From positions 1 to 57,563 of the IMG/VR virus record IMGVR_UViG_3300027736_000054: DNA of 57,563 nucleotides; one strand, given 5' to 3'. A program made the translations under genes and the position numbers. Source of the DNA: a virus (taxonomy: Duplodnaviria; Caudoviricetes). Positions 4,825 through 18,508 of the stretch are shown one piece after another; the stretch's first letter is position 1, and every line of letters begins with the position of its first letter. A model generated the notes under the pieces. The model was not told the DNA's origin. It saw nothing but the letters and a program-made list of their open reading frames with translations, and did not search any database.

Positions 4825-5060
4825 GTTTTCATAGCCCTCACAAATATTTGAAAAGATGCAACAGTATCCACACCAAACGAATGAGTGAATGTTTCAAACT
4901 CTCGTGCAACTTCTTCAATCACCTCGTTGCGCATATCGTCATGTAACTTTTTCTCGGCAATAGCTCGCATTTTCATTTCTTCATCAAACGCTTTCTTTAC
5001 TCTGTTCATGCTCTCAATATGCTTGAACGCATCATCTTCATCATCACACATCATGCTCAT
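4821..5060 (-). CDS. hypothetical phage protein
   Basis: 3' part of ORF 4821..5114; likely start MSMMCDDED at 5060. Confidence 0.6.
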   Translation of the reverse strand: MSMMCDDEDDAFKHIESMNRVKKAFDEEMKMRAIAEKKLHDDMRNEVIEEVAREFETFTHSFGVDTVASFQIFVRAMKT

Positions 5061-5193
5061 CTTCATCCTCCTCACACTTCTCACACCCAATATGGTCTGG
5101 GTCACGACAGTCATGCTCCATTCTCCTAAAGGATTGATAGCTTGAGTACCACTCCTCTTGTCTCATCTCCCGTATATCTTCTTCGTAAAGCAT
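5044..5193 (-). CDS. small Cys/His protein (49 aa, not in ORF track)
   Basis: MLYEEDIREM...HDCRDPDHIGCEKCEEDED; GGAG upstream. Confidence 0.55.
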   Translation of the reverse strand: MLYEEDIREMRQEEWYSSYQSFRRMEHDCRDPDHIGCEKCEEDEDEHDV

Positions 5194-5300
5194 CAATCTT
5201 TCTCCTGAAAAACAGCCAAGGCCGCAAACAAAATAACAATGGCAACAATTGCTATTGCCGCCCCCAAAAACAAAACAAACCAGATTACGAATATTTCCAC
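5193..5300 (-). CDS. single-TM microprotein (35 aa)
   Basis: MEIFVIWFVLFLGAAIAIVAIVILFAALAVFQEKD; GTG start after GGGGG; coupled to its neighbours. Confidence 0.5.
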   Translation of the reverse strand: MEIFVIWFVLFLGAAIAIVAIVILFAALAVFQEKD

Positions 5301-5301
5301 T

Positions 5302-5391
5302 TCAGTCCCCCCTAAAGAAGTAAATTACCCCCATCACTATCACCACCGCTATCAAAGTACCTAATACCAACATCAATAATTTCATTACCAT
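5302..5391 (-). CDS. single-TM microprotein (29 aa)
   Basis: MVMKLLMLVLGTLIAVVIVMGVIYFFRGD; AAGGA upstream. Confidence 0.45.
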   Translation of the reverse strand: MVMKLLMLVLGTLIAVVIVMGVIYFFRGD

Positions 5392-5482
5392 TTGTGCATC
5401 CTTTTGCACAATTGTACACTATTTTACATTATATTACCAGTTAGCTAGGGAAAACACCTACCAGTTATGTTAAAATTTAAAT

Positions 5483-5658
5483 TTATTTACGGTAGCTAAT
5501 TGTTTTGTTGCCTTTTCTTTTGTTGCATGGCCCGCATAGAGGCTGTAGATTTTCAATATTAAGCGCCAGTTCAGGATAAAACTTTCTAGGTTTTATGTGG
5601 TCTATGTTTATTGGGTGCTGTCTTGAATTTTCTTTTCCGCAACATAAACTTTACACCC
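5483..5658 (-). pseudogene. frameshifted/truncated HNH endonuclease remnant
   Basis: The minus frame reads LCCGKENSRQHPINIDHIKPRKFYPELALNIENLQPLCGPCNKRKGNK (DH...N...CxxCN). There is no in-frame start; an upstream G-C-K lies 1 nt out of frame. Confidence 0.65.
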
Positions 5659-5659
5659 T

Positions 5660-6141
5660 TGGTGGACGAGAGATGCTTTGTGGCAAGACTCTGCCTACAG
5701 GGGAGCGAATCCCCTTTCGGCATATTTCCACACCCTCGGAGCCACGTTTAGTCTCCATGTGGGGTAACATCAATCTACCTTGTGTTACCTTTAGATGCTT
5801 TCCACTGCGTAGCAATGTCTAGCTCGGCCATCTAACCCTATGCCGCCACCCGCAGACTGAACCACGGACACCATAGGAACTCCCCCGATTGCGCCTTGCA
5901 TCTTCTTTGCGCTCTCGCTTTAGACTAGAACGTTGTAGGGGCGGTGGACTGCGCACTACGCCTTACGGCTTCCTACGCTTCCCTCATGCCACCCCAAAAC
6001 CCGATAGATATCTAAAACATAGATGCGTAGGGGACAATAAAAAAGCCGCTTACTACTGCCCTCGGTAGGAACCCTACGGATTAAACCAAGGGCAAGGGCA
6101 TGAGTAAACGGCTTTAAAACCTGTCGCTTCCTACGGCAACA
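5660..6141 (-). ncRNA. candidate structured non-coding RNA / leader
   Basis: No credible ORF; lies downstream of a consensus promoter; several hairpins (6042-6054 pairs with 6103-6115; AGGGGA-TTCGC-TCCCCT near 5700). Confidence 0.45.
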
Positions 6142-6147
6142 GTTCCG

Positions 6148-6175
6148 ATTATACAGATATTTTAATCGGTGTCAA
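6148..6175 (-). promoter_or_regulatory. sigma70-type promoter (leftward)
   Basis: TTGACA (6175-6170), 16-bp spacer, TATAAT (6153-6148); overlapped by the inverted repeat CCGATTA..TAATCGG (6145-6169). Confidence 0.8.
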
Positions 6176-6196
6176 ATACGACACGATGTCGCTTTT

Positions 6197-6225
6197 AAAA
6201 AAAAAGTGGGGCCACATGACCCCAC
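6197..6225 (-). terminator. intrinsic terminator after the VRR-NUC-like gene
   Basis: GTGGGGTC-ATGT-GGCCCCAC hairpin followed by T9 on the minus strand. Confidence 0.75.
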
Positions 6226-6274
6226 AATCCTATTACTAGGAGAACTATGAAGCGGCAACTGCGCCGCACCTCTA

Positions 6275-6562
6275 TCATACACAGTTTTTTAGCAATGCCA
6301 ATGCCTCATCTACGTTATTAACTACGGCCAACATACCGCCTTCCCAATTATCAAAAAAATTTTTCTCTGCTGGTGTTAGCGTTCTAGCCGATGGCGGTTT
6401 GTTTCCGTCTTTAATTTCAAGCAATAAGGTAAAACCCCTATAGCCCACTAATAAATCAGGTATGCCATCGCCCTGACTAATTATGCGTACATAAGCACCA
6501 CACGCCCGTAACGCATTAACTATTTCATTTTGGTTCTCATCAATCCTGTTGGCTCTTCTCAT
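6275..6562 (-). CDS. VRR-NUC-like / Holliday junction resolvase-like PD-(D/E)XK nuclease
   Basis: MRRANRIDENQ...GIPDLLVG...LLEIKDG...LTPAE. True start is at 6562; the listed N-terminal extension runs into the promoter and array. Confidence 0.8.
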   Translation of the reverse strand: MRRANRIDENQNEIVNALRACGAYVRIISQGDGIPDLLVGYRGFTLLLEIKDGNKPPSARTLTPAEKNFFDNWEGGMLAVVNNVDEALALLKNCV

Positions 6563-6608
6563 GGTAACGTTTCCATCATAAGTATTTGTAGCAGTTATAA
6601 CATACCTA

Positions 6609-6637
6609 TTGACAACACACAATAAACCAGTTATAAT
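6609..6637 (+). promoter_or_regulatory. perfect sigma70 consensus promoter upstream of the GGY-NN array
   Basis: TTGACA 6609-6614, 17-bp spacer, TATAAT 6632-6637; the pentamer tract begins ~16 nt downstream. Confidence 0.9.
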
Positions 6638-6652
6638 CCCATCACTTAGACC

Positions 6653-7761
6653 AGTTATGTATGGTCTGGTGCGGTTAGGCGGGGTAGGTTGAGGCAAGGT
6701 AGGCTGCGGGCTGACAACAGTCGATAGGTGATTAGCAATAGTCATCCTTCGAGTGAGGTGGGGTCAGGTGCGGTTAGGTGTGGTAAGTTTAGGTTTGGTG
6801 AGGCGAGGTAAGGGCTGACAACAGTCGATAGGTGATTAGCAATAGTCATCCTTCGAGTGGGATTTGGTACGGTAGGGTCGAGCGGGGTGAGGTCAGGTTG
6901 GGTGGGGTAAGGTCCGGTGCGGTATGGTAAGGAACTAGCAATAGTCGATGGGTGATTAGAAATAGTCATCTTTCGAGTGGGGTTAGGTTATGCTGGGTAA
7001 GGCAGGGTGCGGCGAGGTATGGACTGACAACAGTCGATAGGCAATTCAATGAGTTGCTCTTCGAGTGTTCGGTAAGGTAAGGTACGGTAAGGCGAGGTCT
7101 GGCGAGGTAGGGTATGGAAAGGTGCGGCTTGGTTTGGACTGATAACAGTCGGTTGAAGATTGGCAACAGTCTTTTTCCGAGTGTTTTGTTGGGGTAGGGT
7201 ACGGTAAGGCTAGGTCAGGTTTGGTCGGGTAGGGCGTGGAACTAGTAATAGTCGATAGGACATTTTCACAAGTGTCTCTTCGAGTATTGAATTCGGTGCG
7301 GTGGGGTGGGGTCGGGTATGGTTGGTTTGGGTTTTGTCGGGTTGGGTAATGTATGGGCTGACAACAGTCGATAGGGCATTAGAAATAGTGTTCCTTCGAG
7401 TGTTAATCAAATGGGGCTTGGTCGGGTTCGGACGGTTTGGTCGGGCGAGGCTGGGTGCGGTGCGGTGAAGTCAGGCACGGTTTGGCAAGGAACTAGCAAT
7501 AGTCGATAGGTGATTAGAAATAGTCATCCTTCGAGTACTGCGGTGAGGTGCGGCAAGGGACGGTTTGGTTAGGTGGGGTCGGGCGAGGTACGGTCGGGCA
7601 AGGCATGGAACTAGCAATAGTCGATAGGGTATTGGAAACAGTACCACTTCGAGTGGGGTTAGGTGCGGTGTGTTACGGCACGGTATGGAGAGGCGAGGTA
7701 TGGCAAGGTCAGGTATGGGCTAATGTAGCGGATAGGGTATTGGTAACAGTACCACTTCCGA
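6653..7761 (+). ncRNA. array of 10 putative guide RNAs: GGY-NN pentamer tracts each closed by a structured two-hairpin repeat (VIPR-like RNA array)
   Basis: Repeats at 6708-6754, 6812-6858, 6931-6978, 7021-7066, 7136-7182, 7238-7285, 7355-7401, 7489-7536, 7607-7654 and 7717-7761. The tracts between them have 5-nt GGY-NN periodicity. Stems covary, with GNRA loops and G-U pairs valid on the + strand. Confidence 0.88.
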
Positions 7762-7788
7762 TGCAACGGTGCATCAATTAACTTTTTT
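7760..7788 (+). terminator. hairpin plus U-tract closing the array (possible weak terminator or processing site)
   Basis: GATGCA-ACGG-TGCATC (7760-7775), then T6 at 7783-7788, just before the RBS AGGA and ATG 7798. Confidence 0.4.
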
Positions 7789-7797
7789 AGGAAAACT

Positions 7798-8364
7798 ATG
7801 AAACAACTTTCAATCAAAATCAACGGCACGGCTCCATTACTTATGCACTCAGATAGGTTTGCAGACCCGCTCAATCCATTAACCAAGGCGCACAAAGAGT
7901 TAACCGGCAAGCGCAAGAAGACAGATGATGATTTAATTGCCATTGCTAAAAGTGAATTTATTGGTAGCTGCTATTGGAATAACTCTGTTGGCTTTCATCT
8001 GCCATCACAAATGTTGGAAAGCTGTTTAATTAATGGCGCAAAACTTCAAAAACTTGGCACTAAATTTAAACAAAGTGTACGGGTGCTTGAAGATGAACTT
8101 CCATTGGTTGGTTACACCAAAACAAATCCCGAAAAACTTTGGGACAACCCTGAGATGCGTGACGCACGAGGCGTAAGAGTTGGAACATCAAAGATTATTC
8201 GTTACCGCCCAATCTTTAGACAATGGAGTTTGTCGGCCACAATCACAATTGACGAGGATGTTGTTAACGTCAACGAGGTTAAGAAAGCCATTGAAGATGC
8301 TGGGAAACTAATTGGCCTTGGGGATTACCGTCCACGTTTTGGTCGTTTTGAGGCAGTAATCTGA
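7798..8364 (+). CDS. RAMP/Cas7-like RNA-binding protein, putative effector of the adjacent array (Vipr-like)
   Basis: N-terminal strand LSIKINGTAPLLMH; FHLPSQMLESCLINGA resembling the RAMP IPgSslKG helix; C-terminal Gly-rich loop GLGDYRPRFGRF. Located immediately after the array. Confidence 0.75.
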   Translation: MKQLSIKINGTAPLLMHSDRFADPLNPLTKAHKELTGKRKKTDDDLIAIAKSEFIGSCYWNNSVGFHLPSQMLESCLINGAKLQKLGTKFKQSVRVLEDELPLVGYTKTNPEKLWDNPEMRDARGVRVGTSKIIRYRPIFRQWSLSATITIDEDVVNVNEVKKAIEDAGKLIGLGDYRPRFGRFEAVI

Positions 8365-8849
8365 TGGATACAACGCTTTACCCTGCATGGAAAGAGGCTG
8401 TTAAGCGGCTTCTTGATGGTGGCATGACCTACGGCAGTACGGTTAAGCGCAGTTATTTAATTGAATTGTGTGGAGTAGCGCCCCCCACTTCAATTGAAGA
8501 TGTGCGTAGATACGATTTGGAAGTGCTGAAGTGCATAACCGACATTAAAGATACGCTACTGACTGCTCACTGTATGTTGTTGGCAACCGACAATGCCGGT
8601 AGTTATGTTGTTATTGCGCCTGAATCTCAGACGCAATACGCCGTAGACAATGGTGTTAAGGCCATTACTAAAGAGATGAAGAAGATGGCAATGAATGTTA
8701 GCTTCACTAAGACGGCCTTACTTTCAGACCCGCAACGAGCAAAGAATGCTGATGCGCAAGCAAAGATTTCTATGTTGGCGGGGATGATGGGCAAGGAGAA
8801 TCGGGAACTTAAACGCTTGGCCGGAACAAGAAATGAAATTAACGAATAA
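8364..8849 (+). CDS. hypothetical protein, translationally coupled to the RAMP-like gene (putative accessory factor)
   Basis: TGATG overlap at 8362-8366; 161 aa, largely helical; no motif recognised. Confidence 0.75.
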   Translation: MDTTLYPAWKEAVKRLLDGGMTYGSTVKRSYLIELCGVAPPTSIEDVRRYDLEVLKCITDIKDTLLTAHCMLLATDNAGSYVVIAPESQTQYAVDNGVKAITKEMKKMAMNVSFTKTALLSDPQRAKNADAQAKISMLAGMMGKENRELKRLAGTRNEINE

Positions 8850-9711
8850 ATTTAATCTGCCACAGACATTTGTTAATGTGATAAATCGACCAACCTATAG
8901 CAAGGGGAAGTCAAACATATCTGCAACCGAACTATTGAACAGTCCTCAGATAGTCCAACTCAAACGCAAGCATTGGGATGAGATTGAAACTGATGCCAGC
9001 GAAATGGTTTGGTCTTTGTTTGGTTCTGCTATCCACAGCATACTGGAGCATGGTAAAGACAACCATCACATTGTTGAGGAAAGAATCTATACAGAGATGG
9101 ACGGATGGAAAGTTAGCGGAGCAATTGATTTACAAGAGGTTGAGGCCGATGGAATTATTGTTTCTGACTATAAAACTACTGGTGCATGGGCGGTGATGAA
9201 TGAAAAACAAGACTGGCACAACCAGTTGAACGTCTATGCGTGGCTAGTTGAAAAGGTGAAGAAGCAACCGGTTAAGAAGTTGCAAATCATTGCTATTGTT
9301 CGTGACTGGGTGGCAAGGGATACGGTTAAAGAGGGGTATCCCTCTTCCCCTATAGCGACAATAGAGATACCACTTTGGCCGTTTGAGCAAAGAGAAGCCT
9401 ATGTCAAAGAACGCATTGCTTTGCATAGTGAGGCATTTTTTGAGGCGGAAACAAATGGTGAGATGGGGCATTGCACATCTGATGAGATGTGGGAAAAGCA
9501 AACTTCATATGCGGTAAAGAAAGAAGGAAACGTCAGGGCCAAGAGTCTTCACAAGACTTTAGAGGAAGCACAACACGCATTGAATCAATTGAAGGGTTAT
9601 TCGTTGGAAGTTAGGCAGGGCGAGAGAACTCGTTGCGAGAAGTATTGTCAGGTAAACACTTTCTGTTCTCAGTATCAGACTTATCTTAAGGAAAAAAATG
9701 ACAGTCTATAA
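8833..9711 (+). CDS. PD-(D/E)XK exonuclease (Cas4/RecB-like)
   Basis: GSAIHSILE, SGAIDL...VSDYKT, QLNVYAWL, C-terminal RCEKYCQVNTFC. Confidence 0.85.
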   Translation: MKLTNKFNLPQTFVNVINRPTYSKGKSNISATELLNSPQIVQLKRKHWDEIETDASEMVWSLFGSAIHSILEHGKDNHHIVEERIYTEMDGWKVSGAIDLQEVEADGIIVSDYKTTGAWAVMNEKQDWHNQLNVYAWLVEKVKKQPVKKLQIIAIVRDWVARDTVKEGYPSSPIATIEIPLWPFEQREAYVKERIALHSEAFFEAETNGEMGHCTSDEMWEKQTSYAVKKEGNVRAKSLHKTLEEAQHALNQLKGYSLEVRQGERTRCEKYCQVNTFCSQYQTYLKEKNDSL

Positions 9712-10378
9712 AAAGTTGCAGACTGCTCGCCATAAATTGGCTGCATCAGGCATCAAACAATCGGGTAAAAATACTTTCCACGGGTGGACGTATTGGCAAC
9801 TTGAAGACTTTATCCCATCAATTCACCGCATCTTTGATGAGGTTGGATTGTGTGGCGTGGTTACATTTGGCGACACCGCTACTTTGACAATTTACGATTC
9901 TGATGGTGGTGAAAGCACGGTGTTTTCTATTCCAATTGTTTCTGCGGAAAGCAATAAGGGTCAATCTATTCAGGTTCTTGGTAGCACAATTTCTTATTTG
10001 CGCCGTTACCTTTGGTTATTGGCCATGGAAATTAGTGAGGACGACACCATTGACAACCAAGAGCAAGAGGTAAAGAAAGAGCCAATCAAAATTGCTATTA
10101 AGAAAAAACCGCCCGCTGTTATTGAGGGGGCTGATGCACCTTGGCATATTAAGGTTACGACAGACGCATCCGCAGGGATGAACGAGTGGCTTAACATTGT
10201 GAACGAGGCATTTAAAACTGCATTGACTGCGGTTAAATCAGAGAGGGATGTGCTAGATATTTTTAAAGTAAACAAGAATATCTTTGACAAGTTAAAAGAA
10301 GAAGCTCCCGATGACTACGACAAATTGATGGCAGATTTTAAAAAGGCAAGACAATCATTTAAGGAAGGAAAAGCATGA
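9698..10378 (+). CDS. ERF-family single-strand annealing protein
   Basis: GKNTFHGWTYWQLEDF and the ERF signature GSTISYLRRY...EDD. Confidence 0.8.
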   Translation: MTVYKKLQTARHKLAASGIKQSGKNTFHGWTYWQLEDFIPSIHRIFDEVGLCGVVTFGDTATLTIYDSDGGESTVFSIPIVSAESNKGQSIQVLGSTISYLRRYLWLLAMEISEDDTIDNQEQEVKKEPIKIAIKKKPPAVIEGADAPWHIKVTTDASAGMNEWLNIVNEAFKTALTAVKSERDVLDIFKVNKNIFDKLKEEAPDDYDKLMADFKKARQSFKEGKA

Positions 10379-11918: not shown

Positions 11919-12190
11919 ACAACAAACTTACCGCCAAGGAGCGGGCGTATATAGGGCTGGTTAAAGAATTACCATGTTCTGTATGCAATGCATCAGGTCC
12001 ATCAGACGCACACCACATAGAACAGAAATTACAATTCTGTGTGGTGGCTTTGTGTAAAGATTGCCATCAGGGTTCTATGATGGGATGGCACGGACAAAAG
12101 CGGATGTGGAAGATTAAAAAGATGGACGAACTAGATGCCTTAGACGTTACTATTCAACGAGTGATGGAAACTTTAAAATCACTTCTTTAA
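11915..12190 (+). CDS. Ref/DUF968-like HNH-type Zn-binding nuclease
   Basis: LPCSVC...AHH...VALCKDCHQG; likely TTG start at 11915 overlapping the upstream stop. Confidence 0.65.
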   Translation: MNNKLTAKERAYIGLVKELPCSVCNASGPSDAHHIEQKLQFCVVALCKDCHQGSMMGWHGQKRMWKIKKMDELDALDVTIQRVMETLKSLL

Positions 12191-15100
12191 AGACTTTCTA
12201 AGCGATTCTGTTTGCTCGGCCACCATAGAAATTAATTCTTTCATGCGGTCAATTTCTTTTCTTTTGGCCGCACCATCCATTGTCTTGTCATTTGTAATAA
12301 CGCTAATCTGCTGCCTGATTTGCGCCATAACTTTAGATTGGCGGTCATAGGTTTTAGCCAGTGCTATTTTGTCTCCCTTTTCACGCATGATTTTTATGAC
12401 TTTTTCTGTGTCGCCAATGGCGGCATAATGCCTCATGTCAGCCATTGCTTGACTAATCTCTTTGTTGCTCTCGTAGAAAGCCGTGGCAAATTTAGACTGG
12501 TTAGATGGTAAAGATTTAACAAGACCCACACTAGCCCTGTCTACCCACTTGCTATCGGGATAAGCCCCTTCTTTAAACGGCATAACCGCATAGTGAGAGG
12601 TCTCAGCAATAGCACTTCCAAGCCAACCAAAATAAGCCTTGATTGCGTAATCCATTTGCACCGGTGACATTCCCTCGCCAGTAAACGGCATGACGCTAGA
12701 AAGGCCGCCAAGGGCTATAGCAAGCGGGCTAGTAGTATCGGTTGTGCGCTCCTGTTTAGACAGCCGCTCCAGACCAGCAGACTCAATAGGCGCACCAGTA
12801 AACGAATCTTTGTTGGCGTACAAATCTACCAATGGCTTGGCAATCTGAGGCAAGTTAACAGCAAATGTATCCGTTACCATGCGTTTCAAAGAATCTTCAA
12901 ATTGTTTGCCCTCTGCTTCTTTGTCAAAAACTTGTTCGGCTATACGTTCGGCCAAAGTTCCAAATGCACCAATTTCAAATGGTTTGGGTACACGCAAGGC
13001 GTAATCCATTCCGGGCAGTTTGAACCACCAGAAGTTATCCCTATCCCATTCGTCCCGTTTCTTAAATTCATCATCATCCTTAAACGCAAAGTACAGGGCC
13101 AAAGATGCAAGGCACACTGAGGCGGTAACGATGCTAAAAGAAGCGGCCTTCTGCTGGTCTGTCAGCTTCTGTCTTTCGCCCTTTTCAGTCAACTTTCCTT
13201 GCTCATCCACATCCCAAAGTGATTTGCCGGTTATGGTGTTGTAAGCAACCCTAGTGGTTGGGGTAATACCATCTCTGCCAAGTTTGTATAGTCCTTGTAC
13301 ACGAGCATTCAAGAATGGAATAACTTGGGCAACCTGACGAAACGCAGGCCACGAACCTGACATAGAAAAGTCCAACAAATCACGAGCATTAAACGATGCT
13401 TCAAGGTGGCTCATTCCCTTGTCTCTCATCTGAGTGTACAAAGCCATGCGGTTAGCAGACTCAGATTTATTGCCCCACTCTTGATACTTATCCCATGCTA
13501 TCTTCAAGCCTTCTTTAACTTTGACTGGGCTATCAAGAATGTGTTCTGGTTTAACGCCTTGCGCAACAAGACGCTTAATCATTTTTGCTTGGTCGCCCTC
13601 ATAGGTTGAGCCAAAGTTAAATATAGCGCCACCAGCAAGAGCAGATATATAGGCTGGTCTGTCTTTATTACTCTCAGCCCATCCATTAACAATGTTAGCA
13701 AATGGATTTTTCTTTAAATCACTAACGGCCATAGCAGATATGGAATCACGAATCAAGTTTCTAACTTTAAATGCAGGAGAAATAGTAACCCCGTATTGGA
13801 GCATATTCTTAAAGTCTCTTGCTACATCTAGGAATTTATTTGATGTACCCAAATACCCAATAGATGAAATAGAATCTAAAAGCATGGGGTCAAGAACGTT
13901 GTAATAAGCTGGACTTCCAGCTACCATTATTTTAACATTTATTTTGCCAGACTTGCCGGTTGCAGGAGTAGTCATCCAAGGTTCTATTTGACCATCCTTA
14001 TAAACCTCTGCATCTTCGTATATATTTCCATCCTCATCTTTCTTGCGAACAACAACATTTACTTTGTCATCAATCATTACAAACTGTTGTTTCAGGTTTG
14101 GCTCTGCGCCGCCCATAAGAATGGCTGCATCTATTGTGGCTTTGGCTGCTTGCGCCTTCATGGATGCGGAAAGTATATGACTCCAGTTACGCAAAGTGTT
14201 TTCCATCAAGTCGGCAAATGGACTTTCCCCGCCCTTTAATTCTTTAGAAAAATGTTGATTGGTCAGGCTAGATGCCGTCATCACCGCATCAATATCCCCG
14301 TCTTCCATCTCACGATAGAAAGGAATGTAGTTAATGTCGTTAACAAATCGCTCATATCCTATTGGGTCTTTGCGTAACTCATCAATTTTTTGTTGTAACT
14401 CTTCTATTTGCCTGTCTTTGGCGCCGTTGCTTAAACCTTCTTTGTTTTCTATGTAATCTATTTGCTCTTGGATTCTCTTAATCATATTGGCAGTTGAATC
14501 AATCAACCCCATCTCAAGAGCAACTTTAAGCACAGACTCATTTAATTTTTGCATATCTTTACGAACAGACTCGTAAAGTTCTTTGCGAGACTTACCATTC
14601 AAATCGCCTTTAATAAGCTCTTCTCTTTTGGCCACTAATTCAGGCATGATGTCTTTGCCATTTTTATCTATAAATCTAGACCGTTTATTGGCTGGTAAAT
14701 TAGCCTCCCTAGTCAATGCCTTCCACATATTAAATCGGTCAACCTCAACGCCTAAAGGCTTAAGTATTTCTAACAAACCTTTTGTATTTGGCTTAATGTT
14801 TAATGCTCCACCGTCATTAAATACCTCTCCATACATCATTAAGCCTTCAAGCACACCATCAACAGATTTGGATAAGCGGGCTAACATATATGCAACAGGG
14901 CTGTATTCTTTGATGGTTCTAAACTGGTCAGCCATTCCTTGGGCCACTTTTTTCCAAAAACCGTCTCGCAACCCGTTAATGCGGTCAACAATTGTTTTCT
15001 TTTGTGGAGCAAAAACAGGTTGAGCATTGTTCATAAACTCAGGAGATACGCCATCAAATGATTCAGGCCTCAAAGGCTGTCTCTTTTGTAAAGAGGCATT

Positions 15101-18100
15101 AAACTTTCCTTTTATTTTTTCGCCTATGCCTTCTTCTTCGGCAACTTCTTTTGCGCTCTCAGGAGTTGATTTTGGTTTAACTGGCGCAACCGTTTTGCTT
15201 CCAATTTTGCCTATTGCTTTTTCCGTTACATCTGTGGATGTTTCTAACAAAGAATCGGCAGCCCTAACCACTGCATCCAAGGCGGTTTCATATTGAACAT
15301 CTAAACCAAGGAGTTTTCTAAATATTTCAACCATGCGTGTTAACGCATTGGTATTGCCAACCTTAATCGTGGTTAAATAATCTTGAAAGTTTGGGTCGGT
15401 TAATCCCCAAGCAACCAATTCTTTAACATTTTTAACGGTATTTGTATTGTAATTAGCAATGTATGTAAGAAATGGGTGTTGTTTACCAGCTTTTACATCT
15501 GCATCTATTTGTTTCTTTACTTTGTTAAGCACAACAGATAGGTCGTTAAATTCTTTGCCGTTGGCGCTCAATGCAGGAACGGTGGCGGCGTGTAATAACT
15601 CATGCAAAATAGTAATGTATCGAGTGCCGGTATTGCTATGGGCTTTGCCGTTTTTTAAACCAGCAAACTGAAAGTGTCCATAACTAAAATTAACCGCATA
15701 TCTAAATCTACCACGCCATCTAAGGTCATCTCTATTTAAAACAGCAACTGGTTTATTAAAAAAATTCCTAGCATCTAATTCTTTAATTCGAGCCAAAACT
15801 TTTTCAGCAATGGCTTTTGCTGCACTATTGGGCGCATTATCAACCGTCCATTGAGCAAGTTCTGTAGCTGTCATGCCTTTAATTTCTTTGGCAATCTGCT
15901 CCATAGGCTTTTTAATTTTAAAGTCTTTTGGTTCTGGTAAGTCTATTGGCGAATCGGGTTTAGTAAATAAATCAGGCGAACCTTCGGACTTTAAAGATTT
16001 AAACACATCAGACAAAGAAAGCTTGGGTTTTTCACCAAACATATCTTCGCCCGCCTGTGATTGGTCATAAGCAGCATCAGCCAAATTACCAATCAATTCG
16101 CCCATACGTTTGCCTGAGCGACTATTTTCAGCAAACATTTCCAATATTGCTAGTGTGTTGGGGTCTAATCCTATTTGACCTTGTGCTACAAAATCTGAGA
16201 GCTTCATGCCGCTACGTTTTGCAGTAACAGCCAACTCTGCCGCCTCAACAATGTTGGGACGAATATCGTACTCGCCAGCCCCCTCTAACTTAGAAACGTT
16301 TGAGGCCGACCTAGCTAGAGCTTGTAAAATTAACTTTGCTTCTGGGTCTGCCGCTTGTGCATACAGATTTATTAAACTATCGCTACCATATGCTTTGTAA
16401 AAAATGGCATTGTTTAGCCTATCAATAGCTTTGGTATTGGGTACGCCTTTGCTGTCAAGCAATTCGCCCTGTTCTTCTTTAGGCATACCTTTGACAAACT
16501 GAACCAATGATTGAGTGTTAACGCTGCCATCTTCGCCGTATTGAAGTCCAGACAAATCAAAGCGGTTTAGGTCATTCTTTGCCGCCTCTACTGGGTTAAG
16601 CCTTAACTGTCCAGCCACATTAGAAACATCGCCAATGTCGGACGTAACAAATGACTTAGGCATAATCCTAACCAACACAGGATTATCCATGTCTAATATT
16701 TGACCTTGTTCAATACCGTGCTGATTATCATTGGCCATTGCTGAACGATAGTCGCTTGCGGTATCGCTACCATAGGCGGCCTGTAGTCCTGCTATGCGAC
16801 CATTGCCTGCAACAGCACGAATTGCTTGAGTGGAAACGTTACCATAATCAGAGTTTGTTCTGCCATCTGCTGTGTGTGATGCAAGCAATTGACCGGCATC
16901 TATAACTGCGTATTGAACGGGAATCTTCCTGCCGTCAGAGGCAGTAGCCACATCTATCCTACCCAGTTGATTGTCCGGAATGGTCAAATCACTAATAACT
17001 ACAGGCGCACCAGACCCAAAATCAGGGGATGTTTTAAGTCGGTCGTAGTCAGGTTTAGATGCAATACCTTGCACTTGCTGAATAGATGCAGCCGTAGCAC
17101 GGTCACGGTTTTGCAACTTAGCAAATATATCTGCCGCATCATCAGGCAATCCTTGCGTGTAATTTTTTAACGCATCCAAATCTGGTTGTTTTATTTCTGC
17201 CTTGGCAGCGGGAGGCATTTTGAGAGTAGGTGGTTGAGAAACATCTGTTGATGGCGGAACAATTTCAGCAGGAGGAGCGGTATTTTCAACAGGTGGCGCA
17301 GCGGTTTGGGTATTAGGTTGATTTATTGATGCTTTAATTTCATCAACGGGTGGTTTAATAACTGTTGGTTCTTTTTCAATTGCGGCGGGTCGTTGAGCTA
17401 ATCCTGTAACACCACCCATACCAACACCACCAACCGCAGCCATACCAGCAGTTTGCCCTAAACCCTCAACCAAACTTTGTTCTGGTTTGACTTCACGCAC
17501 AGCAAGGTTTTCAGAAAACTTTCCTCCAACCTCTTCTGCTATTTCACTGGCACCCTCGCCTAAAGCGCCTTTAACTCCGCTTGCAACACGGCCAGTCAAA
17601 CCTCTTGCGGCAACTTTACCAACTTCTTTAGGTACACCAACCAATGCCTTTTCAATTGTTTGTGCGCCGGGTAATTTTTGAGCCAACAAAGAAAGGATTG
17701 CAGCCGATGCACCTGTAGCACGGGCTAGGTTTAACGCACCTTCAGCAGCCTCTTCGTCTGATGCGCCCTTTGATTTTAATTCTTTGTAAATGTTTTCATA
17801 AGCGCCAGCACCCACATCTGCGCCTTGCTGTACCGCTCCTGCGCCAACAGCCGATTTAACAGCCGTTTTTCCAGCAAGTTTTACCGCCTCTTCTGCAACC
17901 AATCCTTTGCCAGCAGAACGAGCTAAAGATATTGCCGCACCCGCCTTACCCGCTCCAAATGGAACTAGTAGTTGAGGCGCTTGCTCTGCCAAAAAGTTAA
18001 GAAGCAACGCAGGGTTTGTAATTGTTTCGCCAAATGCAGTGCCAAATGCAGCAAGCTGTCCCTTTTTTTCTGCCTCTGCTATCTTGGTTGCCCTGTCTTG

Positions 18101-18508
18101 TTCCATTTGTTTAAGTGCGGGAGACTTCATTTCCTCGCCGTACTCTTGCATTCGTTTGCCTACGCTCTTTTGACCTTCTAATATTGCCTGCCCTACGGGG
18201 CCTCCAGCAATAGCCATGCCTGCAATTTGTCTTGCTTTGTCAACATTAGTTTCTGCTGGTTTGCCCATATCGCCAGTAACCAAGCCATACAGTTGCCCCG
18301 GCAATTGAACCAAAGAGCCTGTGCCAGAAACAACACCAGCACCCACATCTTTAATTGCCTCGCCCCACGTTCTTTCTAAAGGTTTTGCTTGGACCTTTGG
18401 TCGTCTTGGTGCTAAGTCTGATGGTAAGTCGTCCTCTGGTACAGCCCTGCTCACTAGCCTTTCGGGAAGGTCGTCAAGAGGTACTGTTGCCATTATGCAT
18501 ACTCCCAC
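12179..18508 (-). CDS. large polyvalent virion/ejection protein (DdrB/ParB-like domain, HExxH zincin-like domain, LPD38-like C-terminus)
   Basis: 2109 aa; LQNRDR...AGNGRIAGLQAAY; ILHELLHAAT; C-terminal RDNFWWF..RVPKPFEIG; last gene of the structural operon. Confidence 0.75.
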   Translation of the reverse strand: MGVCIMATVPLDDLPERLVSRAVPEDDLPSDLAPRRPKVQAKPLERTWGEAIKDVGAGVVSGTGSLVQLPGQLYGLVTGDMGKPAETNVDKARQIAGMAIAGGPVGQAILEGQKSVGKRMQEYGEEMKSPALKQMEQDRATKIAEAEKKGQLAAFGTAFGETITNPALLLNFLAEQAPQLLVPFGAGKAGAAISLARSAGKGLVAEEAVKLAGKTAVKSAVGAGAVQQGADVGAGAYENIYKELKSKGASDEEAAEGALNLARATGASAAILSLLAQKLPGAQTIEKALVGVPKEVGKVAARGLTGRVASGVKGALGEGASEIAEEVGGKFSENLAVREVKPEQSLVEGLGQTAGMAAVGGVGMGGVTGLAQRPAAIEKEPTVIKPPVDEIKASINQPNTQTAAPPVENTAPPAEIVPPSTDVSQPPTLKMPPAAKAEIKQPDLDALKNYTQGLPDDAADIFAKLQNRDRATAASIQQVQGIASKPDYDRLKTSPDFGSGAPVVISDLTIPDNQLGRIDVATASDGRKIPVQYAVIDAGQLLASHTADGRTNSDYGNVSTQAIRAVAGNGRIAGLQAAYGSDTASDYRSAMANDNQHGIEQGQILDMDNPVLVRIMPKSFVTSDIGDVSNVAGQLRLNPVEAAKNDLNRFDLSGLQYGEDGSVNTQSLVQFVKGMPKEEQGELLDSKGVPNTKAIDRLNNAIFYKAYGSDSLINLYAQAADPEAKLILQALARSASNVSKLEGAGEYDIRPNIVEAAELAVTAKRSGMKLSDFVAQGQIGLDPNTLAILEMFAENSRSGKRMGELIGNLADAAYDQSQAGEDMFGEKPKLSLSDVFKSLKSEGSPDLFTKPDSPIDLPEPKDFKIKKPMEQIAKEIKGMTATELAQWTVDNAPNSAAKAIAEKVLARIKELDARNFFNKPVAVLNRDDLRWRGRFRYAVNFSYGHFQFAGLKNGKAHSNTGTRYITILHELLHAATVPALSANGKEFNDLSVVLNKVKKQIDADVKAGKQHPFLTYIANYNTNTVKNVKELVAWGLTDPNFQDYLTTIKVGNTNALTRMVEIFRKLLGLDVQYETALDAVVRAADSLLETSTDVTEKAIGKIGSKTVAPVKPKSTPESAKEVAEEEGIGEKIKGKFNASLQKRQPLRPESFDGVSPEFMNNAQPVFAPQKKTIVDRINGLRDGFWKKVAQGMADQFRTIKEYSPVAYMLARLSKSVDGVLEGLMMYGEVFNDGGALNIKPNTKGLLEILKPLGVEVDRFNMWKALTREANLPANKRSRFIDKNGKDIMPELVAKREELIKGDLNGKSRKELYESVRKDMQKLNESVLKVALEMGLIDSTANMIKRIQEQIDYIENKEGLSNGAKDRQIEELQQKIDELRKDPIGYERFVNDINYIPFYREMEDGDIDAVMTASSLTNQHFSKELKGGESPFADLMENTLRNWSHILSASMKAQAAKATIDAAILMGGAEPNLKQQFVMIDDKVNVVVRKKDEDGNIYEDAEVYKDGQIEPWMTTPATGKSGKINVKIMVAGSPAYYNVLDPMLLDSISSIGYLGTSNKFLDVARDFKNMLQYGVTISPAFKVRNLIRDSISAMAVSDLKKNPFANIVNGWAESNKDRPAYISALAGGAIFNFGSTYEGDQAKMIKRLVAQGVKPEHILDSPVKVKEGLKIAWDKYQEWGNKSESANRMALYTQMRDKGMSHLEASFNARDLLDFSMSGSWPAFRQVAQVIPFLNARVQGLYKLGRDGITPTTRVAYNTITGKSLWDVDEQGKLTEKGERQKLTDQQKAASFSIVTASVCLASLALYFAFKDDDEFKKRDEWDRDNFWWFKLPGMDYALRVPKPFEIGAFGTLAERIAEQVFDKEAEGKQFEDSLKRMVTDTFAVNLPQIAKPLVDLYANKDSFTGAPIESAGLERLSKQERTTDTTSPLAIALGGLSSVMPFTGEGMSPVQMDYAIKAYFGWLGSAIAETSHYAVMPFKEGAYPDSKWVDRASVGLVKSLPSNQSKFATAFYESNKEISQAMADMRHYAAIGDTEKVIKIMREKGDKIALAKTYDRQSKVMAQIRQQISVITNDKTMDGAAKRKEIDRMKELISMVAEQTESLRKSLKK

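Follow-up and report, generated by a model that had tools for sequence, protein, structure and literature searches.

A ten-unit array of putative VIPR guide RNAs with two-hairpin tails precedes a vipr gene in an uncultured freshwater phage

Analysis of a viral contig (Duplodnaviria; Caudoviricetes; IMG/VR record IMGVR_UViG_3300027736_000054), the whole analysed stretch of 57,563 nt being referred to below as the window, revealed that the 1.1 kb between a promoter at positions 6609-6637 and position 7798 very probably constitute a VIPR array, which encodes ten guide RNAs (vrRNAs) on the + strand and is accompanied by vipr and a vap-like gene. VIPR is a known kind of system, published in April 2026, and the locus is a further natural example of it. 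According to the main texts of the papers concerned, VIPR is a phage-borne, CRISPR-like, RNA-guided DNA silencer, described in 2026, in which the NN bases of YNNGG repeats pair with double-stranded DNA, every third base being skipped, and whose complex silences rival phages and satellites (PMC13142463; 10.64898/2026.04.26.720927; 10.64898/2026.10.15.759431). Vipr, a small RAMP protein, is described there as polymerising on the vrRNA, in which 9-16 YNNGG repeats precede a structured 3' tail, which the discovery paper terms invariable (PMC13142463). Also typical of VIPR systems are vrRNAs of approximately 100 nt that co-purify with Vipr, and guides whose natural targets, read by the 1-nt skip rule, lie mostly in coding DNA with the skipped base at the wobble position. 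VIPR arrays are also reported to be recovered by a language-model survey.

The tracts that lie between the tails of the array consist of 8-16 tandem YNNGG pentamers. They are G-rich and have a 5-nt period, each tract ending in GG, and the vrRNA tail follows the tract directly. The YNNGG pattern was matched by 104 of the 117 pentamers, with an entropy of 0.90 bit at Y, 1.91 and 1.95 bits at the two N positions, and 0.30 and 0.29 bit at the two G positions. Runs of at least four perfect GGYNN units were detected only at 6663-7716, on the + strand, within the 57.5-kb window. A preliminary description of this DNA, which did not name the system, had treated the tracts as spacers; they are instead the guides. 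Guides differ between related phages, whereas the tails stay alike.

All ten repeats of approximately 45 nt that the preliminary description had reported were found on the + strand at 6710-7762 (inside 6646-7797), spaced 89-135 nt from start to start and separated by variable segments of 44-90 nt. The repeats had been proposed to conserve RNA structure rather than sequence, and the data bear this out. Each tail folds into a 4-bp hairpin 1 stacked on hairpin 2, whose 3-bp outer stem is separated by an internal loop from a 7-bp inner stem, the core of which is fixed (A-U/U-G/U-A); in the alignment of the ten units, invariant letters (CU..AG, CG.U.G, AUU, AGU, U.C) are flanked by varying positions. 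When the structure ....((((....))))(((...(((((((....)))))))...)))....... was tested on the ten units, all 140 of 140 cells formed standard pairs (mean of 83.8% in shuffled alignments), 7 of the 14 pairs changed on both sides, and the covariation score was 0.559, compared with 0.194 in the shuffles. None of 500 shuffles equalled the ten units in pairing, in covariation score or in the number of doubly changed cells, and a single one (1/500) did so in the counts of pairs and of pair types. When the 3' partners were displaced by 1-3 columns, pairing fell to 26-59% of the cells (58.7% at most).

Every hairpin variant quoted in the preliminary description is present, and unit 4 carries a sixth variant of hairpin 1 (ACTG-ACAA-CAGT) that had been missed. 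The change of the outer stem to CGG..CCG, which had been assigned to units 5 and 10, was confirmed for unit 5 but not for unit 10, where the stem is GGA..TCC and hence still compensatory. Units 1-9 end in GAGT, as had been observed, and unit 10 ends in CGAT; the GAGT had been put forward as a candidate cleavage boundary. Stem sequences differ between the ten tails of one array with pairing retained; such a drift with compensatory changes, even within one array, presumably occurs because it is the shape and not the stem sequence that matters.

The structure was also supported beyond the window, in a larger alignment and in a covariance-model search, both of which had been suggested as checks. 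Among the IMG/VR homologues of the 188-aa protein encoded downstream of the array, a like array is located directly upstream of the gene in L003-L007. The covariance model R1, built from the ten window units, matched 27 tails in the first ten sources, every one of them on the vipr strand. A scan with a 17-letter tail motif yielded 27 stretches, i.e. two duplicate contigs (L012, L013) and 25 further viral loci; full tails (2-4 each) were found upstream of the same gene in 12 of these 25 loci, while the other 13 contained none (four gave weak partial matches and nine no match). The pooled alignment comprised 47 tails (46 distinct rows) from 16 sources, the window and 15 loci, with the near-identical loci L016, L020, L027, L029 and L031 and the two duplicate contigs left out. 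In this alignment pairing is kept in 99.1% of 637 cells (77.0% in shuffles), changes on both sides affect 11 of the 14 pairs, and none of 500 shuffles reached any of the measures; because it was fitted to the model, the alignment leans towards the structure. Among the loci examined the array invariably accompanies vipr, and the window array, with ten vrRNAs, is the largest, the others having 2-5.

The preliminary description had also held that the G-U pairs fix the transcribed strand. Indeed, G-U or U-G occurs in 83 of the 637 pooled stem cells (13%), including a near-invariant U-G (44 of 46 rows), and since these cells become A-C mismatches on the minus strand, the fold exists in + strand RNA only. 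One unit, when folded, gave -25.3 kcal/mol for the + strand and -10.0 for the minus strand. The predicted transcript is therefore assigned to the + strand by the G-U pairs, the upstream promoter matching the consensus at 12 of 12 positions, the co-oriented vipr gene and the GGYNN runs confined to this strand. The promoter is the sole + strand promoter-like site in 5000-8500, and promoter-like hexamers were read directly at the same place in L004, L014, L021 and L035. No internal promoter-like site and no terminator with an adjacent T-run was found inside the array, which points to a single precursor that would need cutting. The earlier idea that the repeats would form a structural handle or processing site in a transcript of the + strand is supported: it agrees, by analogy, with the vrRNA tail, described in the discovery paper as a structured 3' cap after a programmable pentamer tract (PMC13142463).

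The 188-aa product of the gene at 7798-8364 matched PDB entry 36pp ('SUSP1 Vipr protein') with an E value of 4.8e-52 over residues 1-186 of 188, and phrog_4652 with an E value of 2.7e-68; it had no match among Pfam families. In an alignment to the numbering of SUSP1, the residues that contact the RNA and the target are kept: H17, K33, R137 (=R138), D176 (=D177), Y177 (=W178) and R178 (=R179), while E71 of SUSP1 Vipr is replaced by Q. The published account of the SUSP1 protein assigns H17, K33, R138, D177, W178 and R179 to contacts with GGY and with the skipped target base, and the P. fulva (Pseudomonas) Vipr is described as having Y in the G-loop, where SUSP1 has W178 (10.64898/2026.04.26.720927). 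The relatives recovered by tblastn (130 records) included Pseudomonas phages Medea1 (53.8% identity) and LESphi2 (47.3%), as well as Felixounaviruses (43.4%). The gene that follows vipr occupies the same position as in Felixounavirus Alf5 (22% identity, E value of 5e-9) and Pseudomonas phage Medea1 (26%, 8e-15), and its product gave no Pfam or PDB match. The coordinates of these features are given in Table 1.

Table 1. Predicted features of the VIPR locus in the window. Hairpin 1 of each vrRNA tail begins at the first position of that tail; imperfect units are those deviating from YNNGG.
Feature	Position	Strand	Remarks
Sigma-70 promoter, TTGACA-17-TATAAT	6609..6637	+	12/12 consensus; ahead of array and vipr-vap
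vrRNA1	6660..6754	+	guide 6660-6709 (10 YNNGG units, 2 imperfect); tail 6710-6754
vrRNA2	6759..6858	+	guide 6759-6813 (11 units, 1 imperfect); tail 6814-6858
vrRNA3	6863..6978	+	guide 6863-6932 (14 units, 1 imperfect); tail 6934-6978
vrRNA4	6983..7066	+	guide 6983-7022 (8 units, 1 imperfect); tail 7023-7066
vrRNA5	7068..7182	+	guide 7068-7137 (14 units, 1 imperfect); tail 7138-7182, outer stem CGG/CCG
vrRNA6	7190..7285	+	guide 7190-7239 (10 perfect units); tail 7241-7285
vrRNA7	7292..7401	+	guide 7292-7356 (13 units, 3 imperfect); tail 7357-7401
vrRNA8	7412..7536	+	guide 7436-7490 (11 units, 1 imperfect), preceded at 7412-7431 by 4 further units, whose register is shifted by a 4-nt unit; tail 7492-7536
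vrRNA9	7539..7654	+	guide 7539-7608 (14 units, 1 imperfect); tail 7610-7654
vrRNA10	7659..7762	+	guide 7659-7718 (12 units, 2 imperfect); terminal tail 7719-7762 (GCUA-AUG-UAGC, outer stem GGA/UCC)
Extra 6-bp hairpin, GAUGCA-loop-UGCAUC	7760..7775	+	between last tail and vipr ribosome-binding site, 22 nt before start codon
vipr, 188 aa, predicted RAMP/Cas7-like guide-binding protein	7798..8364	+	PDB 36pp, phrog_4652
vap-like accessory gene, 161 aa	8364..8849	+	overlaps vipr stop; phrog_5926

A candidate target was identified for vrRNA10. Guides of L021 and L035 contain, at differing offsets, a 7-unit core that is also present in vrRNA10. A scan with an 8-unit core retrieved 101 stretches, 80 of which were examined as loci; on extension, three of them were outliers (14 of 18, versus 10 or fewer for the rest), and all three are homologous sites in an 817-aa primase-helicase (PriCT_2, DUF5906). 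The two outlier phage contigs that were checked carry no Vipr homologue. On one VIPR-less contig of 54.8 kb (locus L153) the primase-helicase gene lies at G001:C1:6214-8667, adjoined by VRR-NUC and SNF2 helicase genes, and the site at 6884-6918. The best match of vrRNA10 on this contig falls on the Walker-B codons (YALTTIEEMKQH), the NN bases coinciding with codon positions 1-2 and the skipped base with the wobble position, from residue 584 onwards. The window guide matched this site at 21 of 24 informative positions (maximum of 19 for 200 shuffled guides), the L021 guide at 23 of 26 (maximum of 20) and the L035 guide at 21 of 22 (maximum of 18). In 25 of 25 relatives of the primase-helicase, the best vrRNA10 site was the same Walker-B motif (..IEEMKQH), with 15-21 of 24 positions matched, and in 24 of the 25 it was in codon phase 0. 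We consider the Walker-B codons of the primase-helicase of a rival phage a candidate, although not a proven, target family.

The other guides gave no comparable result. Guides 1-9 had no match on the two phage contigs matched by vrRNA10 or in the 25 helicase loci, and an exact scan of viral contigs with all ten units of vrRNA6 returned no match. With 8-unit seeds, seven matches were obtained in viral contigs for vrRNA3 and two for vrRNA9, their extension being at chance level (1-5 of 12). No window guide scored above shuffled guides in the window or in 234,766 bases of related loci.

Several observations weigh against the identification proposed above, or against parts of it. Thirteen of the 117 pentamers are imperfect, the guide of vrRNA4 has eight units (nine by a looser call), that of vrRNA8 contains a 1-nt register slip, and the similarity of the vap-like product is weak (22-26% identity). 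The tail is not the pseudoknot of the solved SUSP1 complex, and the fold energies of whole vrRNAs are near those of shuffled sequences (z of -1.4 to -2.2). As regards the target, one of the ten guides only has a candidate, the tail-proximal unit of vrRNA10 is mismatched everywhere (at both bases in the match of 21 of 24), and none of the 25 relatives offers a 24/24 site. Furthermore, a rough estimate, which assumes uniform base composition and a guessed collection size, indicates that a match of 21 of 24, taken by itself, would arise by chance somewhere in a collection as large as IMG/VR; it is therefore the related guides, the codon phase and the homologous sites that support the target. Finally, single-sequence folding and RNAalifold, the latter of which had been proposed as a check, favour another pairing for the 3' strand of hairpin 1.

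In the alternative fold, the 3' strand of hairpin 1 (CAGU) pairs with GAGUG after the tail, which lengthens the outer stem (window 6722-6760 and equivalents; columns 19-22 with 58-61 of alignment A3). The column pair 19-61 is CG in 31 rows, UG in 9 and UA in 7, and the pair 22-58 is broken in 11 of the 47 rows, whereas hairpin 1 pairs in 100%. This pairing may be a switch between precursor and mature RNA, or it may be an artefact.

The architecture of the locus could also be viewed as that of a cis-acting 5' leader, in which the five-base repeats would be binding sites for a ring- or filament-forming protein and termination or translation would be switched by the hairpins, in the manner of a TRAP-like attenuator or of a nut/put-like antiterminator; no guides acting in trans would be made. 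The array is, after all, the 5' untranslated region of vipr-vap, with which it shares a promoter, and a conserved hairpin lies 22 nt ahead of the vipr start codon. Triplet repeats with a period of 5 recall TRAP sites, where triplets are repeated with 2-nt gaps, approximately 11 per tract, and the GNRA-like loops recall boxB. However, the triplet in the window is GGY and not GAG/UAG, the gap bases are informative and, by analogy with VIPR, the RNA would act in trans on DNA. The combination of a fixed GGY with near-random NN befits a code rather than a fixed binding site, and the guides vary between related phages, the tails being constant. One of the guides matches, in register with the codons, a gene that is foreign; the downstream protein is closely related to a solved guide-binding protein; and a scan of 16 neighbouring proteins detected no member of the TRAP, N or Q families. 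We regard the leader explanation as very unlikely.

An element acting at the DNA level, i.e. a replication origin or recombination hotspot with iterons, hairpin repeats and a G-rich non-template strand prone to R-loops or two-tier G-quadruplexes, would suit the position of the array in a divergent intergenic site between replication and recombination modules and downstream of a strong promoter, and the GC skew, which reaches +0.52. Such an element is nevertheless highly improbable, given that 13% of the stem cells are G-U pairs that only + strand RNA can form, that stem sequence varies with pairing kept, which a sequence-specific double-stranded DNA binding protein could not tolerate, that the arrays of L003 and L006 follow + strand genes within an operon, without a divergent gap, and that the array always travels with vipr. 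The alternation of structured direct repeats with variable segments of 44-90 nt resembles a CRISPR-like or anti-CRISPR array, or the RNA of a type III toxin-antitoxin system, in which the 45-nt repeats would be the active part and the tracts filler; mini-arrays and pseudo-antitoxin repeats are known to be carried by phages. This explanation is hardly credible, as the variable segments are strictly 5-periodic, unlike spacers, no Rfam family (CRISPR repeats included) matched the array, and neither cas nor toxin families were found in the neighbours scanned. Other readings were also considered: (i) TRAP-like sites, (ii) CsrA/Hfq sponges, (iii) Shine-Dalgarno sponges, (iv) Rho avoidance, (v) R-loop/G-quadruplex origins, (vi) nut/put antiterminators, (vii) self-cleaving ribozymes, and (viii) type III antitoxin repeats. 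They were dropped because L006 uses GGC (so that the tract is not C-poor), Rfam gave no match and the downstream protein is Vipr.

With the array read as a set of ten vrRNAs, one of its closest known counterparts is the type II VIPR of Escherichia phage SUSP1 (Felixounavirus; PDB 36pp), which resembles the window in its Vipr (43% identity, RNA-contact residues kept, with Y in the window for W178), its GGY/NN pentamer guides of similar length, its structured 3' tail, the vap-like gene after vipr and its carriage by a phage. The tail of the SUSP1 clade, as read in Alf5, is an H-type pseudoknot with interleaved GUAG/CUAC and GUCUCA/UGAGAC pairings, followed by a T-run, whereas the window tail consists of two consecutive hairpins with 4-nt loops and no T-run. 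Moreover, the discovery paper places one SUSP1 vrRNA upstream and three downstream of the genes (PMC13142463), whereas all ten in the window are upstream, in one promoter-driven leader. The Pseudomonas VIPR clade (P. fulva prophage, Medea1, LESphi2) resembles the window in that it includes the closest cultured relatives of its Vipr (Medea1 54%, LESphi2 47%) and shares Y in the G-loop (P. fulva). The tails of Medea1 and LESphi2 likewise start with GGGCUG-loop-CAGC, followed by a second hairpin whose sequence is unrelated to that of the window, and model R1 matched the Medea1 tail with an E value of 6.6e-4. Compared with the ten vrRNAs of the window, LESphi2 has three, located upstream, and Medea1 only one, located after vap. 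In the P. fulva complexes the tail was not resolved (10.64898/2026.04.26.720927), and the main texts of the VIPR papers neither give a structure for a tail of the non-pseudoknot type nor mention vrRNA processing in this clade.

The predicted vrRNAs also resemble the crRNAs of Class 1 CRISPR systems, which have a Cas7 backbone and repeat hairpins cut by Cas6, as known in general and from the discovery paper (PMC13142463): a RAMP protein would polymerise along the guide with periodic base flipping, a variable guide is joined to a structured handle, and there is one promoter for the array. They differ in that the guide is non-contiguous, with two informative bases per five, and in that, by analogy with VIPR, they would read double-stranded DNA as their target, skipping 1 nt. 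Neither Cas1/Cas2 nor any other cas family was detected in the neighbours scanned, save for a weak Cas4-like note on the PD-(D/E)XK exonuclease.

The related loci provided some further observations. A terminal module is common to seven loci (window 7719-7797, L014, L015, L017, L021, L032 and L035): the last tail of each of these arrays is the distinct variant GCUA-AUG-UAGC with a longer second hairpin, and beyond it comes the extra hairpin, conserved in the seven, with a compensatory change from GAUGCA/UGCAUC to GAUACA/UGUAUC between loci. This hairpin was scored as terminator-like, but the T-run is not adjacent to the stem. In L007 (3157-3421) and L008 (3-87), guide tracts were called at 17-25 pentamers, which exceeds the published 9-16; each such tract may in fact be a pair of guides with no recognised tail in between. 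No RNA run was found to contain the array stretch. Contigs from four metagenome runs (X1-X4; freshwater or unlabelled) cover 6700-7760 in fragments and at low depth. They retain the tails, break there and continue into GGYNN tracts unlike those of the window; one contig lacks exactly 5 nt (one pentamer) at 7346, in the guide of vrRNA7, and several joints skip 138-345 nt between tails. These low-depth contigs at most hint that guides turn over and units are lost or gained between strains, the tails being kept.

The window contig (57.5 kb) is viral and estimated to be 91% complete, with capsid and terminase genes similar to their counterparts in freshwater and marine phages; no tRNAs were found in it. 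The array occupies a divergent gap, with primase, helicase and ParB genes on one side and exonuclease and Erf genes on the other; on the + strand, the array is followed by vipr, the 161-aa gene, the PD-(D/E)XK exonuclease gene and the gene of an Erf annealing protein. A blastn search of 6000-9800 against cultured phages gave no match. Rfam returned no match in the array, either at the gathering score (whole window) or at E values of up to 10 (6300-8000), and the single weak row obtained, CRISPR-DR47, falls inside vipr on the opposite strand.

The divergent neighbour of the array, located on the minus strand at 6275-6562, encodes a PD-(D/E)XK / VRR-NUC-like nuclease of approximately 95 aa; the same arrangement was observed in L004 (190-495), L021 and L035. 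The list of open reading frames stretches this gene to 6745, across the promoter and the first tail, which is probably wrong, the start being at 6562. In L014-L017 and L032 the nuclease position is occupied by a different gene, whose product, beginning MIKIGIDPG, may be RuvC-like. Just past the nuclease gene, the minus strand carries a second 12/12 sigma-70 promoter (6148-6175) and a strong terminator-like hairpin with a T9 run (6206-6225). Elsewhere in the window, a 2109-aa open reading frame (12179-18508, minus strand) matched phrog_2206 (virion RNA polymerase) weakly (E value of 3e-22) and phrog_18222 (large proteins of unknown function) strongly (2e-151).

On the model of the published SUSP1 and P. 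fulva systems, the locus may be expected to operate as follows. The array would be made as one precursor and cleaved enzymatically between each tail and the guide that follows it. One Vipr protomer would cover each pentamer, gripping GGY and exposing the NN dinucleotides, which would pair with double-stranded DNA with every third target base skipped, and the resulting filament would repress transcription of rival phages or satellites. The tail would cap the 3' end and mark the RNA as a Vipr substrate. A more elaborate scheme, which we put forward as rather doubtful, is that the array is both one precursor and the 5' leader of vipr-vap, with the two-hairpin tail being more than a cap and directing cleavage at the conserved UUCGAGU boundary, where it would be recognised by a host RNase or by Vipr acting in the manner of Cas6, the pairing of hairpin 1 with GAGUG acting as the switch between precursor and mature RNA, and the drift of the stems being selected against recombination of the ten tails, with the shape kept. 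If this were true, and if Vipr were the enzyme that cuts, handle-directed guide processing would be older than CRISPR.

The locus leaves the known VIPR mechanism unchanged. It enlarges the record of VIPR, which has been known for under a year, by a well-resolved array in which ten guides of an uncultured freshwater phage lie behind a single promoter, and it yields a two-hairpin model, supported by covariation, of the non-pseudoknot tail. From the drift of the stems, the nucleotides read by the protein are likely to be the CU/AG of hairpin 1, CGAUAG, the AUU/AGU core with its U-G pair, and UUCGAGU; these would be useful for the design of minimal or mutually orthogonal vrRNA scaffolds. Finally, the candidate target would extend the published picture: the staggered guides of three related phages on one site suggest that, outside E. 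coli and Pseudomonas as well, guides are directed at codons that are conserved in essential genes of competitors.

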